A stretch of 13,902 nucleotides of DNA from a virus (taxonomy: Duplodnaviria; Heunggongvirae; Uroviricota; Caudoviricetes): IMG/VR virus record IMGVR_UViG_2718218136_000009, positions 1-13,902 of that record. One strand, given 5' to 3'. Shown here piece after piece: positions 1 to 8,414 of this stretch. Under the pieces are notes generated by a model. It saw only the letters and a list, made by a program, of their open reading frames with translations, was not told the origin of the DNA and did no database searches. How positions within the stretch are numbered: the stretch's first letter is position 1; the number at the start of each line of letters is the position of its first letter. A program made the position numbers and the translations under genes.

Positions 1-1230
1 ATGAGCAGAGCACTTAACAAACTGAGCGATACACAGCTAAGAAAAATCAACGGCACACCAGCCCCAAAAACCACATTTCTTAATGACGGTGGAAACCTGA
101 GTATCAGACACTCCACCAGCGGCCTGTTAACCTGGTATTTCACCTACAGGGCAGGAACAGGACGCCAGGTATCACCGGAACGCCTGAAACTGGGAAATTA
201 TCCTGATCTGAGCCTGAAAGCAGCCAGGGAAAAAGCAGCACAGTGTCGCGCATGGCTGGCAGAGGGAAAAAATCCACGCCATGAGCTTAATTACTCCATA
301 CAGGAAGCACTAAAGCCGGTAACGGTGGGCGATGCGATCAGCTACTGGCTGGAAATGCACGTAAAGGAAAACCGTGTCGATTACGTCTCCCTGAAAAGCC
401 GCCTGAATAATCACGTCATACAGCATATTGGCAATATGCCACTGGATAAATGCGAGTTACGTCACTGGCTGGCCTGTTTTGACCGGATACGCAAAAAATC
501 ACCCGTAACATCTGGCCACATGATGCAGGCGTGCAAACAGGCGCTTAAGTTCTGCCGTAAACGTCGCTACGCAGTCAGTAACGTTCTGGATGATCTCAAC
601 GTGGTGGACGTTGGCAAAAAGCCGGGCATAAGCGAACGCGTGCTTAGTAACAAAGAACTGGGCGAATTATTACAGGCACTGGATAAAAAAATATTCCCAC
701 CCTACTACAGCGCACTAATCCGCCTCCTGATTGTGTTTGGCTGCCGAACCGGAGAACTGAGGCTGTCGGAGATCAGGGAGTGGGATTTTAAGGAAATGCT
801 CTGGACGGTACCGAAAGAACACAGCAAAACGAAGGTCGCCATATTCAGGCCAATACCGGAAAGCATTTTACCGTTCGTCACGCTGCTGGTGGAGCAGAAC
901 AAACACACAGGGCTATTACTCGGGGAACAGAAACAGGAAGCCAGCGTGTCGCAATACGGCAGATTCATGCACAAAAAATTAAACCATTCGCACTGGTCAC
1001 TACACGATATACGGCGCACGTTTACCACGATGCTGAACGATTTAGGCGTGGATCCGCATATTGTCGAACAACTCACCGCTCACCAGATGCCAGGGATGCA
1101 GCGAGTCTATAACCACTCCCGTTATCTCGATGCGAAACGTAACGCGCTGGATATGTGGACAGAGCGATTAGAGATACTGGCAGGTGCTCACGAAAACGTA
1201 ACCACACTGCCAATAGCCAGAGAAATATAA
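1..1230 (+). CDS. int: Tyrosine-type site-specific integrase (P4-like phage integrase family)
   Basis: 409-aa ORF starting at ATG. N-terminal arm-binding-like region (LSIRHSTSGLLTWYFTYR). Catalytic-domain motifs GCRTGEL (box I Arg), HDIRRTF (box II His-x-x-Arg) and a C-terminal Tyr region (VYNHSRY). Size typical of P4-type integrases. Confidence 0.9.
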   Translation: MSRALNKLSDTQLRKINGTPAPKTTFLNDGGNLSIRHSTSGLLTWYFTYRAGTGRQVSPERLKLGNYPDLSLKAAREKAAQCRAWLAEGKNPRHELNYSIQEALKPVTVGDAISYWLEMHVKENRVDYVSLKSRLNNHVIQHIGNMPLDKCELRHWLACFDRIRKKSPVTSGHMMQACKQALKFCRKRRYAVSNVLDDLNVVDVGKKPGISERVLSNKELGELLQALDKKIFPPYYSALIRLLIVFGCRTGELRLSEIREWDFKEMLWTVPKEHSKTKVAIFRPIPESILPFVTLLVEQNKHTGLLLGEQKQEASVSQYGRFMHKKLNHSHWSLHDIRRTFTTMLNDLGVDPHIVEQLTAHQMPGMQRVYNHSRYLDAKRNALDMWTERLEILAGAHENVTTLPIAREI

Positions 1231-1254
1231 TTTTTTTCGCGATTTTTTAGAACG

Positions 1255-1313
1255 GAAACAACGTGAAACAACGAGACACCACGACGAACAACGGCGAACA
1301 ATCTGGAACAAAC
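1255..1313. repeat. Six tandem 10-bp-phased GAACAA-core repeats between int and alpA
   Basis: Units begin at about 1255, 1265, 1275 (degenerate GACACCAC), 1285, 1295 and 1305: GGAAACAACG, TGAAACAACG, AGACACCACG, ACGAACAACG, GCGAACAATC, TGGAACAAAC. Preceded by T-tracts at 1231-1247. Confidence 0.75.
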
Positions 1314-1597
1314 TTGATTATCATCTGACTGACACCCTAAAAAGTTGATTTTCAGTCGTTTTACTGGCTTTTTGTACATTGGCGAATCACTCTTAAAAAC
1401 ATGTAAAAAAGGCGTAAAAACAGAATTTTATGCCTTTGCACCACAATGAATTAAAAGAGTTTTTATTCTCATTACCCCACTTCTGTAAAATGACCGCCGC
1501 CAGTGTTTGCCATTCCATAAACACCCTGACACAATCCGACGCACCACAACACAATAGGACACCAAATAACTCTTTAAGAAATATCAAAGGGGGAATT

Positions 1598-1786
1598 GTG
1601 TTAAGCACAGATCGCTTTATACGTGAAAAAGAATGTCAGCAACTTACAGGCCTGAGCCGCTCATGTCGGTACCGCCTGGAAAAAGCCGGACAATTCCCAT
1701 CACGGCGTAAGCTCGGCGGTCGTTCTGTTGGCTGGTCTTTATCCGAAGTTCTGGCATGGAAGGACAGCTGCGAGGCAGTTCACTAA
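1598..1786 (+). CDS. alpA: AlpA-family (excisionase-like, MerR-superfamily HTH) transcriptional regulator
   Basis: Sequence DRFIREKECQQLTGLSRSCRYRLEKAGQFPSRRKLGGRSVGWSLSEVLAWK matches the AlpA/prophage regulatory protein pattern (HTH followed by SVGW...E...W). Start chosen at in-frame GTG 1598 after SD AAAGGGGG (1586-1593), giving 62 aa. The upstream ATG at 1430 would add a low-complexity 56-aa extension with no SD. Confidence 0.8.
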   Translation: MLSTDRFIREKECQQLTGLSRSCRYRLEKAGQFPSRRKLGGRSVGWSLSEVLAWKDSCEAVH

Positions 1787-3584: not shown

Positions 3585-3884
3585 ATGAAACAGAAAAATT
3601 CTGGCTTTACTGCCAGCGGCTCCGCTCGGCCTGAAATCCGCCCCGGCGATATTTTCCGGGATAACTACGGCGGCACGGTAACGATTAAAAGCGTGGCGGG
3701 ACGGTGTGTTACTTACCGCCGTGAAGGTTATGACTATGACTGCGTGATGCCTGTTTATCAGTTCCGCCGTGATTTTTCTCTGGTACAGGCAGCGCAACGC
3801 AGTAAGCCCACCAGCAGGGAAAAAGCACGGGAAAATATTAAGAAAATAAAAAGCATGCTCAGCGCATCCAGAGGTAAAAAATGA
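3585..3884 (+). CDS. Hypothetical protein (99 aa)
   Basis: SD GAGGAA (3571-3576) eight nt upstream of the ATG. Stop overlaps the Rep start (ATGA). Confidence 0.55.
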   Translation: MKQKNSGFTASGSARPEIRPGDIFRDNYGGTVTIKSVAGRCVTYRREGYDYDCVMPVYQFRRDFSLVQAAQRSKPTSREKARENIKKIKSMLSASRGKK

Positions 3885-5287
3885 AACTGGCACCGAACGT
3901 AAAACTGTTACCGAAAGATAAACACACTGAGGCGGTTATTTTTGCGGGTGATAATGCTCACTCCTTTGCAGAACATTACATGATTGCACAGGCCAAAAAA
4001 GCAGGCGATCCCATCCCTCCGGTTTACCTGGGCCGTTATCAGTTAAGCGAACTGGACAATTTACAGATTGTTGATGAAGGACGATACAGAGCAAAGGTCA
4101 TACGCGCCGGAAACCTGGACGATATGCAGATGCTGACCATTGCCACAAAACTGGCGATCGCAGGTGTCCGGGAAGCGCGGTTACTTTCAGAGAATTTCGA
4201 ACTACTGGAGGACTGGGGCGAGCAACTACCGCGCCTTAAAGAAACCTGGGAACGTGGGGAAAGCCTGGTCATGAATGGCGGAAAGCGAAAAATCACACTT
4301 CCCATCTCATGGGGTTCTGAGGGATTCGACGCGCAGCAAAGCTACGTAATTAAGGGGCTTATTCCGGCTGAATCATTATGCAGCACCTACGGGGCCAGCG
4401 GCTCTTATAAATCGTTCCTGGCTATTTCCTGGTCGTGCCATGTTGCCACAGGTATGGCATGGGGAGGCCGCAGGGTCAGTAAGGGCGCGGTTATCTATAT
4501 CGCTGGTGAAGGCAGCATGGGCGTAAAACGCCGCGTTAAGGCGTGGGAGATAACCCACGACAAGGTGGTTACAGATTTGTGCATCATTAACGCGCCTGTC
4601 TTCCCTGCATCGCCTGACTATGTGGAGCAGGTTATCAGAACTGCCGGACTTGTTAAGAGCAGAACGGGCGAAAATGTGCGGCTGATTGTGATAGACACGC
4701 TGGCCCGTTGCTTTGGTGGGAATGATGAAAATGATTCCCGTGATATGGGCGCATTTATCCAGGGGTGTGACGCGATAAAGCAGGCCACAGGGGCCACGGT
4801 GCTGGTGGTTCACCATTCCGGCAAGGATGAAACAAAGGGGGCGCGTGGTTCCAGCGCATTCCGTGCCGCACTGGATGCAGAGTACCGAATCAGCCGGGAA
4901 AATTCAGACGTTACAGCACTGGTGGCGGCGTGTACGAAGATGAAGGACGCAGAGGAGCCAAAAGAAAGCGCATACGACCTTAAAAGCGTGGAGGTGTTTA
5001 CCGATACAGATGGCGAAGAGATTGTGTCCATGGTGGTGATTGACGTTCCCCGCGCCCCTGCTGAACTGGAACGCATCGAGGAGGCCGGGAACAAGACGGA
5101 AAATCACACGGCTTTATGGGGTTGTATCCGATCACGTATACAGCATGGTGATAAATGCACGATCCCGTTGCTACGTGACGACATGAAAAAGCTGGGATAT
5201 GACACAAAACACCTTAAACGATGGTTAGCAAAACTGGAAAAAGACGGCGTGATTTGCGTCGATGGGGATGATGTTCACCCACTGTAA
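3881..5287 (+). CDS. RecA-like/AAA_25-type P-loop ATPase with C-terminal winged-helix region; candidate replication initiator or helicase (Rep)
   Basis: 468 aa. Walker A GASGSYKSF, Walker B LIVIDTLARC, and VLVVHHSGKD as in RepA/DnaB-C-like ATPases. SD GAGG six nt upstream. An iteron array follows the stop directly. Confidence 0.8.
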   Translation: MKLAPNVKLLPKDKHTEAVIFAGDNAHSFAEHYMIAQAKKAGDPIPPVYLGRYQLSELDNLQIVDEGRYRAKVIRAGNLDDMQMLTIATKLAIAGVREARLLSENFELLEDWGEQLPRLKETWERGESLVMNGGKRKITLPISWGSEGFDAQQSYVIKGLIPAESLCSTYGASGSYKSFLAISWSCHVATGMAWGGRRVSKGAVIYIAGEGSMGVKRRVKAWEITHDKVVTDLCIINAPVFPASPDYVEQVIRTAGLVKSRTGENVRLIVIDTLARCFGGNDENDSRDMGAFIQGCDAIKQATGATVLVVHHSGKDETKGARGSSAFRAALDAEYRISRENSDVTALVAACTKMKDAEEPKESAYDLKSVEVFTDTDGEEIVSMVVIDVPRAPAELERIEEAGNKTENHTALWGCIRSRIQHGDKCTIPLLRDDMKKLGYDTKHLKRWLAKLEKDGVICVDGDDVHPL

Positions 5288-5488
5288 AAAGTGGGCGTTA
5301 AAAGTGGGAATAGTGGGTAATTTAACCGAAATTTAACAAAATCGCCCACTTTCCCACGTGTATACATCCAAAAAAGTGGGCACTAAAAAAATACTTATGA
5401 AACAGTACGATATAAAACCACAAAATCCCAGGTGGGACGAAGTGGGAAACCATGAAAAGTGGGCAGAAAAAGTGGGCACAGGTGGGCG
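5286..5488. repeat. Iteron array (about 11 copies of A/G-GTGGG, consensus AAAGTGGGCA) with central AT-rich segment; candidate replication origin
   Basis: AGTGGG cores at 5290, 5303, 5312, 5375, 5441, 5458, 5471; GGTGGG at 5431 and 5481; inverted copies CCCACT at 5345-5350 and CCCAC at 5353-5357. AT-rich stretch 5384-5427 between the iteron groups. Position is immediately 3' of the Rep gene. Confidence 0.7.
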
Positions 5489-6199: not shown

Positions 6200-6730
6200 A
6201 TGACAAAGATGACCATTAACCGAAAACCGAAAGGCATTTACGGCACGCCGCAGAAAATACCGCAGGCGGCACAGCAGCAGGATAAAACCACATCGGCGCA
6301 TAAAGTGATACCCGGCAATCAGAACGCACAGCAGAAACCCACAGGGGCGACAGCGTGGCGGCATATGACCAAACGCCAGCGCAAAAACCGCAGACGCGTT
6401 AACCGCCTTATTGAATTGTGGCCAGAATTATTCAGCCGGGAAGCACCGAAGCCGCTTAAGGTGGGGATATTCGACGACCTGATGCAGGATATCGCCGCCA
6501 GGGGGCTGACATTCGGGCCGGGGGCATTACGTGCGACGCTGGCATCCTATGCGCAGTCTCCGCGCTATTACCGCGCCTTAATAGCTGGTGGGGTACGCTA
6601 CGACCTGAAAGGCCAGCCATGTGGGGAAGTGACACCACAGGAACAGCAGGAGGCAGAAACGCGGCTGATGGCGCTGAATGAGAAGCACAAGCGCCAGCGC
6701 CGGGCAGCAAAGGGGGATACATGCCAGTGA
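6200..6730 (+). CDS. ProQ/FinO-family RNA-binding protein (FinO domain)
   Basis: 176 aa. Segment LFSREAPKPLKVGIFDDLMQDIAARGL...LRATLASYAQSPRYYRALIAGGVRYDLKGQPCGEVT aligns by eye with the E. coli ProQ N-terminal domain ([23 protein letters not shown]...LRSALRLYTSSWRYLYGV...RVDLDGNPCGEL). Basic, disordered N-terminal extension. ATG 6209 is an alternative start. Confidence 0.8.
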   Translation: MTKMTINRKPKGIYGTPQKIPQAAQQQDKTTSAHKVIPGNQNAQQKPTGATAWRHMTKRQRKNRRRVNRLIELWPELFSREAPKPLKVGIFDDLMQDIAARGLTFGPGALRATLASYAQSPRYYRALIAGGVRYDLKGQPCGEVTPQEQQEAETRLMALNEKHKRQRRAAKGDTCQ

Positions 6731-6969
6731 CATTTGAAGAAGTTCAGCAACATAAAAAGTTTCATGGTTTTGATGATCTGGAAACCACGACAGCAAAAAA
6801 ATATCGCCGTCTGCTTTCTTCCGATGCGTTGTTTGTTGTGGATCATCATGATTTTCTGCGCAGCTCACTGACCGGGGAAATTTTCGCAACCAACCGTGAG
6901 CAGGTGGAAGCGATGATCGAATATCTGTGGAAAATAAGACGCAGAATGCGGGATCCAGTGAAACAATAA
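6721..6969 (+). CDS. Hypothetical protein (82 aa)
   Basis: Start overlaps the ProQ/FinO stop (ATGCCAGTGA). SD AGGGGG upstream. Last gene of the early operon. Confidence 0.5.
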   Translation: MPVTFEEVQQHKKFHGFDDLETTTAKKYRRLLSSDALFVVDHHDFLRSSLTGEIFATNREQVEAMIEYLWKIRRRMRDPVKQ

Positions 6970-7024
6970 AGCGATAAAGGCCTGGATTTTTTTTCAGGTC
7001 TTTTTTTCAGGTTTTGTAAATTAT

Positions 7025-7050
7025 TTGTTCGTGGTTGTTCCAGGTTGTTC
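7025..7050. repeat. Three TTGTTC repeats at exact 10-bp phasing upstream of the capsid operon (reverse complement of the int-alpA GAACAA repeats)
   Basis: TTGTTC at 7025-7030, 7035-7040 and 7045-7050. The reverse complement cGAACAAcctgGAACAAccacGAACAA closely matches 1285-1313 (cGAACAAcggcGAACAAtctgGAACAA). Tandem TTTTTTTCAGGT repeats sit just upstream at 6987-7012. Confidence 0.7.
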
Positions 7051-7244
7051 GGTGATTCTGGCTGATGTTTACATACTGATTTTTATGTATATGTTGGCGT
7101 GTGGCACTCAGACGTGAGCCGCCACAATGCCGCCTGACCCCCTGCGCGATGCCGGGTTGATCTGCGAGATGCCGAGAGTGTCGGGCGGCGCTCCCTCCGT
7201 GTTGGTTTCACGTCCTGAATCTTAACCAATACGAGAAAACCTTC

Positions 7245-8414
7245 ATGAAGAAATTAATCGAACTCCGCCAGCAAAAAACCGCCCTGAAAAACCAGATGCG
7301 ATCCCTGCTGGAAAAAGCCGACAGTGAAAACCGCAGCCTGAACGATGACGAGGGCAAACAGTTTGATGAACTGCGTGCAAAAGCCGATTCCCTCGACACA
7401 GAAATTTCCCGCCTCGAGTCTGTGGCTGATGAAGAACGCAGCAAGCCAGGAACGGGCATCCAGAAATTATCATCTGATGAATTGCGTAACTATATCGTAA
7501 CCGGAGATGTGCGATCACTGTCCACCAGCACTGACAGCGGCAGGGATGGCGGATATACCGTAATTCCTGAGCTTGATCGCGAAGTCATGCGCCAGCTACA
7601 GGATGACAGTGTTATGCGCGTGATCGCGACCGTGAAGACCGCAAAATCAAATGAGTTTCAGAAACTGGTTTCCACTGGCGGCGCAACTGTAGGAAGAGGC
7701 ACAGAAGGCAGCGCGCGCAGCGAAACCAACACCCCGAAAATTGAACGCGTAACCATCAAGCTGAATCCGATCTACGCCTACCCGAAAACCACGCAGGAAA
7801 TCCTGGATTTTTCAGAGGTGGATATTCTGGGCTGGTTATCCTCCGAAATTGCCGACACGTTCGCCAGCACCGAAGAGGATGATTTTGTTAATGGCGACGG
7901 TAACGGCAAGCCGAAAGGATTCATGGCTTACACCCGTGCGGCGACCAGTGACAAAACCCGCGCTTTTGGCACCATTGAAAAAATGGTAGCGGCAAGTGGA
8001 ACCGCCATTACAGCGGACGAACTGATCGACATTCTCTACAAGCTGAAAGCGAAATACCGCAAAAATGCCGTCTGGGTGATGAACTCGGGCACGGCAGGGA
8101 CACTACAGAAGCTGAAAAATGAGAACGGCGATTATATCTGGCGCGACAGCCTTAAAGAAGGTGCGCCGGATATGTTGCTTGGTCGTCCTGTTTACTGCCT
8201 GGAGTCCATGCCGGACATCGGCGCAGGAAAAGCACCGCTAGCGGTTGGCGATTTCAGTCGTGGTTATTTCATCGTTGATCATGTAACAGGGATTCGCACC
8301 CGACCGGACAACATTACTGAACCCGGATTCTACAAGGTCCACACGGATAAATATCTGGGCGGTGGTGTGGTGGATTCAAACGCCATCAAAATTCTGGAAA
8401 TGAAAGCTGGCTAG
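7245..8414 (+). CDS. Phage major capsid protein, HK97 family
   Basis: 389 aa. N-terminal coiled-coil delta-domain-like region (MKKLIELRQQKTALKNQMRSLLEKADSE...LRAKADSLDTEISRLE) followed by a capsid-fold-sized body. Immediately upstream of the prohead protease and portal genes. Confidence 0.85.
   Translation: MKKLIELRQQKTALKNQMRSLLEKADSENRSLNDDEGKQFDELRAKADSLDTEISRLESVADEERSKPGTGIQKLSSDELRNYIVTGDVRSLSTSTDSGRDGGYTVIPELDREVMRQLQDDSVMRVIATVKTAKSNEFQKLVSTGGATVGRGTEGSARSETNTPKIERVTIKLNPIYAYPKTTQEILDFSEVDILGWLSSEIADTFASTEEDDFVNGDGNGKPKGFMAYTRAATSDKTRAFGTIEKMVAASGTAITADELIDILYKLKAKYRKNAVWVMNSGTAGTLQKLKNENGDYIWRDSLKEGAPDMLLGRPVYCLESMPDIGAGKAPLAVGDFSRGYFIVDHVTGIRTRPDNITEPGFYKVHTDKYLGGGVVDSNAIKILEMKAG

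Follow-up and report, generated by a model that had tools for sequence, protein, structure and literature searches.

What reads the run of short repeats, spaced one helical turn apart, that lies between the integrase gene and the alpA gene of this phage satellite, and does the same protein also read the copy of the motif that stands upstream of the capsid operon? The first-pass annotation of the 13,902-nucleotide stretch of DNA analysed here (the window) had proposed that one small excisionase/AlpA-like protein recognises both sites and binds them cooperatively, on the same face of the DNA. This proposal is supported by the conservation of the motif and of its phasing, by the presence of such arrays in the attachment (att) arms of related elements, by the predicted fold of AlpA, by the contents of a published alpA promoter (PalpA) fragment and by the precedent of the excisionase TorI. 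We consider it probable (about 0.65) that the arrays are cooperative AlpA binding sites serving autoactivation and activation of the capsid operon, as well as excision at the arms. AlpA is the master switch of the Gram-negative phage-inducible chromosomal islands (PICIs), the capsid-forming ones included, which are widespread among enterobacteria.

The satellite and its genes

Judged by its open reading frames (ORFs) and their Pfam matches, the whole window is a capsid-forming PICI (cf-PICI). It starts with the ATG of int and ends with a stop codon, so that its attachment sites lie outside the window. Its int-alpA module is 81-97% identical to elements found in about 860 complete E. coli genomes, EcCIEDL933 included. 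The genes needed for what follows are these:

1..1230, + strand: int, P4-type tyrosine integrase with an Arm-DNA-bind_3 domain (Pfam); partner of AlpA in recombination
1598..1786, + strand: alpA, GTG start, 62 aa, PF05930 (E=3e-18); winged-helix excisionase-like regulator and proposed binder of the arrays
3881-5287: RepA-like AAA_25 helicase gene (Pfam match)
6721-6969: small ORF of 82 aa, without a Pfam family, directly upstream of array 2
From 7245 (mcp start): head and packaging operon (ORFs and Pfam)
Also among the window ORFs, by Pfam match: a gene for a DUF4222 protein, an SSB gene and a gene for a ProQ/FinO protein

A longer AlpA frame, starting from the ATG at 1430, was considered and rejected, as relatives carry 1-nt and 10-nt indels there.

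The 361-aa ORF that follows alpA (1839-2924) has a mosaic appearance: antA/AntB or BRO-N antirepressor genes match its N-terminal part, and the Icd-like region of relatives matches its C-terminal part. Inside the same span, a YlcI/YnfO gene is annotated on the opposite strand in relatives. This ORF may not be one real gene.

Directly downstream of the RepA-like helicase gene, AAAAGTGGG(C/A) iterons, at least seven in number and found in both orientations, cluster at positions 5286-5481, and this cluster is probably the replication origin of the satellite. In L136, a relative whose Rep is different, AAAAGTGAGG repeats occupy the matching position. In L003, a PICI embedded in a helper phage, the AT-rich stretch that follows the terminase gene is bordered by three direct TTGCGGGTTAT repeats and three inverted AACCCGC ones (19640-19810); this region may be an origin or a packaging site.

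The array between int and alpA

Two features describe the repeats of this intergenic region:

1255..1314, + strand: array 1, phased GAACAA/AAACAA cores in six units of 10 bp, the third of which is degenerate; proposed as the AlpA operator for autoactivation
1286..1311, + strand: alpA-proximal core of array 1, where GAACAA is exact in three successive units 10 bp apart; the best-conserved units

From 1255 to 1314, array 1 reads GAAACAACGT GAAACAACGA GACACCACGA CGAACAACGG CGAACAATCT GGAACAAACT. The first-pass annotation had described six tandem GAACAA repeats with an exact 10-bp periodicity. The periodicity is confirmed both by the sequence, where the period is exactly 10 bp, and by TRF, which reports a period of 10, and the six phased units are indeed present; what did not hold is that all of them are exact, as GAACAA is found in three units (1286, 1296 and 1306), two others read AAACAA (one mismatch) and unit 3 is degenerate, which leaves five good units. 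The ACAA cores fall at 1258, 1268, 1288, 1298 and 1308, with a degenerate ACCA at 1278. Array 1, with its six units, and array 2, with its three, are both made of short direct repeats that recur at each helical turn and face the same side of the DNA.

Such an arrangement is rare in the window. GAACAA occurs in 11 copies, six of which belong to the two triplets of arrays 1 and 2, and these two arrays are the sole exact 10-bp-phased triples of a hexamer, of any sequence, within the 13.9 kb. Among 2000 dinucleotide-preserving shuffles, a GAACAA triple was never obtained and a triple of any hexamer was obtained in 2, and a chance origin of the phased triples is excluded. We also considered and rejected an RNA element: Rfam gave no match in the window, and as RNA array 1 folds worse than its shuffles on both strands, which fits a protein site acting at the DNA level.

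Array 1 lies 25 bp past the int stop codon (1228-1230) and 284-287 bp short of the alpA GTG (1598), in the orientation opposite to that of array 2 and of the arrays found in att arms. Its best units point toward alpA and the weaker ones toward int, and the alpA-proximal core is a possible nucleation end. Both strands were searched for a sigma70-type promoter beside the array and none that was convincing was found, the only sigma70-like matches being located at 1507-1555. The distance of about 285 bp from the alpA start, the inversion relative to the other arrays and the lack of a convincing adjacent promoter all count against array 1 being an AlpA operator.

The array upstream of the capsid operon

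The second array lies between the end of the replication and accessory genes and the start of the capsid operon, in the following setting:

6976..7007, + strand: terminator-like hairpin with a U-run, stem of 11 bp, -14 kcal/mol, z -3.7 (hairpin 6976-7003)
7025..7050, - strand: array 2, GAACAA in three exact copies at 10-bp intervals; proposed as the site from which AlpA activates the capsid/packaging operon
7068..7095, + strand: predicted sigma70-like promoter of the capsid operon, TTTACA-16-TATGTT, ahead of the mcp start at 7245

On the + strand array 2 reads TTGTTCGTGG TTGTTCCAGG TTGTTC, with TTGTTC at 7025, 7035 and 7045. According to the first-pass annotation, nearly the same 28-bp module as in array 1 recurs here in inverted form. 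The cores, their phase and the inversion were found as described, whereas the resemblance does not extend to the whole sequence: the spacers of the two arrays differ, and in register they share about 22 of 30 positions by hand count.

The hairpin is predicted to end the upstream replication/accessory operon just ahead of array 2. Its version in relatives has a cleaner predicted stem, GGCCCGGA/TCCGGGCC, which amounts to compensatory changes, and an equivalent terminator is predicted in EcCIEDL933 too. TRF also reported a 13-bp 'direct repeat', TTTTTTTCAGGTC, in this region, which is in part the 3' arm of the 6976-7007 hairpin.

From the end of array 2 to the predicted -35 there are 17 bp. In the EDL933 lineage, a comparable TTTACC-16-TATTCT, which scores under the threshold of the promoter tool, stands at a similar distance from the array. 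Array 2 is thus found after a terminator and before a promoter-like site, at similar distances, in two capsid lineages that otherwise have unrelated leaders. It may be the site of a class I activator, for which binding at about -55 to -95, on one face and upstream of a weak -35, is expected; the -35 in question belongs to the predicted sigma70-like promoter (7068-7095), and the layout is similar in the second lineage. The two lineages (99% and about 64% capsid identity) have in common the block TTTTGTAAATTAT-TTGTTCGTGG-TTGTTCCAsG-TTGTTC, downstream of which the leaders are unrelated, and homologues of the 82-aa ORF always adjoin array 2 in both of them.

The leader of about 150 nt that runs from the predicted promoter to the capsid start (7100-7244) is GC-rich and remains near-invariant where the capsid genes are only 69% identical, and the unrelated leader of the EDL933 lineage has a similar length. 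No Rfam match was found for 7100-7244, which could be a structured regulatory leader.

Conservation of the arrays among related elements

To avoid circularity, the loci used for conservation were retrieved by protein or flanking similarity and not by DNA pattern. For the region upstream of alpA, we collected 80 IMG/VR loci through AlpA, by a search of viral contigs with a three-sequence AlpA alignment, and these gave 50 unique upstream regions with an AlpA at least 90% identical; an AlpA search of genome contigs gave 3 loci only. The periodicity is kept in 49 of the 50 unique regions, which have at least three ACAA cores at exact 10-bp spacing (at least five in 41 regions and three in 8, the last one having two), when shuffles reached at most 2 phased cores. 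In an alignment of upstream regions of relatives, the cores are invariant (the columns over the 1286..1311 cores) and the spacers drift, which is a phylogenetic footprint. Eight upstream regions with an AlpA below 90% identity showed no phased run, the longest being a single core. Elements with an AlpA 57-66% identical keep the arm and capsid arrays and have upstream of alpA only a 2-unit site, about 115 bp away; the long array upstream of alpA is therefore lineage-specific and not a universal requirement.

For the region upstream of the capsid gene, the same pattern-independent set gave 14 unique regions, in which an exact TTGTTC triple is present in 11 and at least three units with at most one mismatch in 13, at 220-245 bp ahead of the capsid start codon. 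Array 2 is retained with three AlpA lineages. L003, whose integrase is 39% identical and has other arm motifs, keeps array 2 base for base, and its second AlpA, a paralogue, has a similar helix (TGLSRSRRWVLE compared with TGLSRSCRYRLE). In EcCIEDL933 (L130) the array upstream of alpA (17297-17333) and the one upstream of the capsid gene (23555-23580) have both spacers and cores in common, TTGTTCGTGGTTGTTCCAC(A/G)TTGTT, which points either to a recent copying event from one site to the other or to a constraint on the spacer bases.

Some limits of the motif also emerged. About 85 unrelated loci, some of them in giant-virus bins, also came out of a pattern scan of IMG/VR for GAACAA triples, so that the GAACAA-triple pattern alone is not PICI-specific. 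No phased arrays were found in CP4-57 of K-12, a more distant AlpA system, and no TTGTTC arrays in EcCIMP1 (L212), whose AlpA is divergent. EcCIMP1 carries TCTACTAAAGT twice in its left arm and once just past the int stop (19050-19060, 20373-20383 and 20436-20446), the copy past int occupying the relative position of array 1. This is a weak parallel, which hints that the architecture may be general while the motif differs.

Attachment arms and the doubled motif

As the attachment sites of the window's satellite lie outside it, we turned to relatives. The element of E. coli KSC1031 (L001) has an int 98% and an AlpA 97% identical to those of the window. Comparison with the empty K-12 site (L002) placed its crossover core, ATTAT(T/A)AATATCGTGA, in the mcaS-smrA intergenic region, with copies at about 15816-15831 and 26249-26264 and the core about 170 bp upstream of the int ATG. 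A 26-bp direct repeat that flanks this element, CGGTGTAGTTAATGGTGTAGTTAATT, was rejected as att core, as the alignment with the empty K-12 site puts it inside both arms. Related integrases have their attachment sites at roxA/phoQ (EcCIEDL933) and cspD/clpS (L004).

The left arm of L001 reads TTGTTCC-AGC-TTGTTCC-ACG-TTGTACC-CCC-TTGTGCA, followed by GGTGTAGTTAAT twice and then by the int ATG, and its right arm reads TTGTTCC-GCA-TTGTTGC, followed by the doubled GGTGTAGTTAAT. The doubled motif is present in both arms, co-oriented, at 15955-15978 and 26161-26184. The same layout, in which two to four TTGTTC units stand directly 5' of a doubled motif, is found in EcCIEDL933, in a Shigella element (L005), in L004 and in many IMG/VR loci. 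In relatives, copies of the array motif thus occur in the att arms beside candidate integrase arm-type sites. The first-pass annotation had concluded from position that array 1 is not a simple attL arm, and within the window this holds; just outside it, both att arms do contain the motif, as seen in relatives.

The doubled motif changes with the integrase: it is GGTGTAGTTAAT where the integrase is 76-98% identical to that of the window, TGTGTGGTCAGT at 67% and GTGTATTGC at 39%. This last form was described by Williams and colleagues in helper-embedded PICIs and suggested to be integrase arm sites (PMC10111431). The TTGTTC array, on the other hand, is unchanged across integrase lineages A and B. 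Since the doubled motif tracks the integrase lineage and the TTGTTC array stays constant, we assign the doubled motif to Int, as its likely arm-type sites, and the array to another protein, which is better conserved. At the arm sites, covariation cannot fully separate Int from AlpA, whose genes are linked. The window integrase's own candidate arm sites, the doubled GGTGTAGTTAAT, fall outside the window.

AlpA and its promoter region

The satellite encodes a cognate small protein of the winged-helix excisionase type, AlpA, which is the sole excisionase-like protein beside int. Its AlphaFold model (pLDDT 88.5) is a MerR-like winged helix with the GIsul2 excisionase 8C3T as best PDB match (TM 0.79/0.85) and further matches to RdfS, TorI and BldC. 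The window AlpA is 100% identical to the L116/L071-type AlpA, the type matched by the published EcCICFT073 primers. Fillol-Salom et al. reported that AlpA of EcCICFT073 activates its own promoter, leaving Pint unchanged, that it is needed for excision, replication, transfer and induction, and that helper phages switch on alpA (PMC6092414).

The primers of the PalpA-lacZ plasmid pJP2038 map to positions 1198-1218 (one mismatch) and 1635-1655 of the window, so that the AlpA-responsive fragment (window 1198-1655, 457 bp) contains the whole of array 1. Array 1 consequently lies inside a region known to respond to AlpA, and may be the responsive element within it. The published lack of an AlpA effect on Pint, set beside the arrays found upstream of int in relatives, counts against reading these arrays as AlpA sites. 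In the literature that we searched, we found no paper defining a PICI AlpA site, and no EMSA or footprint.

Alternative readers of the arrays

The arrays could instead be read by a protein from outside the satellite, either a helper-phage excisionase of the TorI/Xis type or a winged-helix response regulator of the host. Transcription of alpA does depend on the helper phage (PMC6092414), the helper still induces alpA-lux in an EcCIMP1 delta-alpA mutant and excisionase cross-talk between PICI and helper has been shown (PMC11773190). The TorI sites (GTTCG, 10-bp period) resemble the TTGTTCG/C units, and host winged-helix response regulators also bind phased direct repeats. However, the arrays in the att arms sit beside the element's own candidate Int sites, which is the position of a cognate excisionase, the long array upstream of alpA tracks the lineage of AlpA or of the int-alpA module, and EcCIMP1, the very case with TorI-type helper cross-talk, is devoid of TTGTTC arrays. 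The known helpers of EcCICFT073 (lambda and phi80) encode different Xis proteins, and host response regulators such as ArcA or PhoP have boxes that differ from the arrays in their cores and in their period, which is 11 bp. Both points count against an outside reader, which we regard as unlikely and as most plausible for the first burst of alpA expression. It is also conceivable, at rather long odds, that array 1 is the induction sensor long looked for in Gram-negative PICIs. Excisionases of the TorI/Xis type from an induced helper prophage, winged-helix proteins that read GTTC-type repeats spaced by 10 bp, would bind it and fire a first burst of alpA before AlpA takes over these sites, in which case the satellite would read helper excision directly. 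A division of labour between two satellite proteins, with AlpA at array 1 and at the att arms and a separate late activator at array 2, for example the product of the 82-aa ORF, could account for the homologues of this ORF that stand directly upstream of array 2 in both capsid lineages, for its lack of a Pfam family and for the retention of array 2 with three AlpA lineages. We find it distinctly improbable: it is unparsimonious that unrelated proteins should have in common an identical hexamer, the 10-bp phasing and three units, the two arrays of EcCIEDL933 have even their spacers in common, and in classical PICIs such as L001 the motif stands at three sites in the absence of the 82-aa ORF.

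Two further readings invoke the enzymes of integration and replication. A recombinase arm-type array, the alternative raised by the first-pass annotation, would make the repeats sites for the N-terminal domain of the integrase, and Int does have an Arm-DNA-bind_3 domain, just as TTGTTC arrays are present in both att arms of relatives. Arm-type sites are expected within a few hundred bp of the core, whereas the window arrays lie about 1.3 kb and 7 kb from the necessary position of the att core; it is a different motif, the doubled one, that covaries with the integrase lineage and was earlier proposed as arm site (PMC10111431), no such covariation being seen for TTGTTC. Furthermore, L003 keeps array 2 despite an integrase that is 39% identical and other arm motifs, so that array 2 survives integrase replacement, and a search for the doubled motif near both window arrays found none. 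This alternative is accordingly disfavoured, and very unlikely in our judgement. As for iterons bound by the satellite Rep, origins typically contain phased direct repeats close to AT-rich DNA, and array 2 is located downstream of the replication module. Yet the arrays persist with three unrelated replication proteins (AAA_25 RepA-like in the window, DUF927 primases in L130 and L003, and a primase family protein in L004), they are not adjacent to an initiator gene, and the window has its own cluster, with AAAAGTGGGC about seven times at 5286-5481, right after rep, where PICI origins have been reported (PMC10111431). Because the arrays do not covary with Rep, the iteron reading is effectively refuted.

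AlpA as the proposed reader

With AlpA as the reader of the arrays, the preferred explanation, monomers would bind head-to-tail, one per helical turn, along one face of the DNA. The sequence of events would begin with the published step in which the helper phage raises alpA transcription (PMC6092414). AlpA would then load cooperatively on array 1 and boost its own promoter region; autoactivation is published, and array 1 is the site that we propose for it. Here AlpA might act by bending or wrapping the DNA, by counter-silencing of the AT-rich region or by control of a leftward transcript. On array 2, it would occupy positions at about -55, -65 and -75 relative to the weak sigma70-type promoter that follows the terminator and could act as an upstream activator, switching on the capsid/packaging operon. 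At the att arms, AlpA bound to the arrays directly 5' of the doubled candidate Int sites would shape the excisive intasome, as the architecture of the arms and the published requirement of AlpA for excision suggest. One small protein would in this way couple excision, self-amplification and late gene expression.

The presence of the motif at four places, namely both att arms, the region upstream of alpA and the promoter of the capsid operon, provides a testable wiring diagram with the exact bases to mutate. The motif also offers a simple signature for the annotation of PICI ends and late promoters, and it allows the candidate arm sites of the integrase (the doubled motif) to be told apart from the candidate sites of the excisionase.

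Comparison with known systems

The AlpA of Pseudomonas aeruginosa has the name and the positive regulation in common with the 62-aa PF05930 protein studied here. One monomer of it binds GGGACG between -35 and -10 and rides RNA polymerase (PMC9371919). We rejected this antiterminator as an analogy, as this Q-like protein is larger and uses one GGGACG site within the promoter instead of phased arrays.

Lambda Xis (on X1-X1.5-X2), RdfS and BldC are winged-helix proteins whose monomers polymerise head-to-tail, one per turn of DNA, and the class formed by RdfS, BldC, Cox and Vis binds direct repeats one helical turn apart at att sites and promoters (PMC11963761). Lambda Xis acts on one arm only, whereas the satellite arrays are in both arms and at two promoters, and RdfS has no clear consensus motif, whereas the core of the satellite arrays is sharp. 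Apl of phage 186 binds cooperatively to direct repeats that recur at each helical turn, both at att and in a promoter region (PMC7498355), and P2 Cox binds multiple direct repeats one turn apart at att and in a promoter region and activates the P4 promoter PLL (PMC3936717). Cox and Apl belong to another protein family, outside PF05930, and their promoter sites control the lysis-lysogeny switch, unlike the window arrays, which are proposed to serve autoactivation and the capsid operon.

TorI of KplE1 (CPS-53 attL, E. coli K-12; an identical protein is a phage Xis) is, like AlpA, a small winged-helix excisionase, and it binds short direct repeats. Its sites are GTTCG, GATCG and GTCCG, three of which are spaced by 10 bp and adjoin the -35 of PintS, beside Int arm sites (PMC2951348); in K-12 the sequence of these KplE1 sites is acaGTTCGtcatgGTTCGcttcaGATCGTTGACA. 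The TTGTTC(G/C) units of the window arrays agree with these sites in the core GTTC(G/C) and in the period. TorI also has a dual purpose, as it directs recombination and regulates transcription, repressing PintS where AlpA is reported to activate. The TorI sites have been described in an att arm, whereas array 2 stands at the predicted promoter of structural genes. TorI is only 26% identical to AlpA and lies outside PF05930, so that the resemblance is one of mechanism and not of family.

The P4 protein Vis is, like AlpA, a PF05930-type protein of a satellite. In work attributed to Polo et al. 1996 and Cali et al. 2004, Vis is said also to regulate the P4 late promoters PLL and Psid, which would be the same logic of an excisionase with a second role in the control of morphogenesis genes. 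In sequence, Vis and PICI AlpA are only remotely related, and P4, unlike a cf-PICI, has no capsid operon of its own. That an excisionase can double as a transcription factor through helically phased repeats is already known from Cox, Apl, Vis and TorI. What appears to be new is the putative PICI AlpA site itself, its occurrence in the two arms, directly next to each doubled Int motif, and its proposed use at the promoter of a satellite capsid operon.
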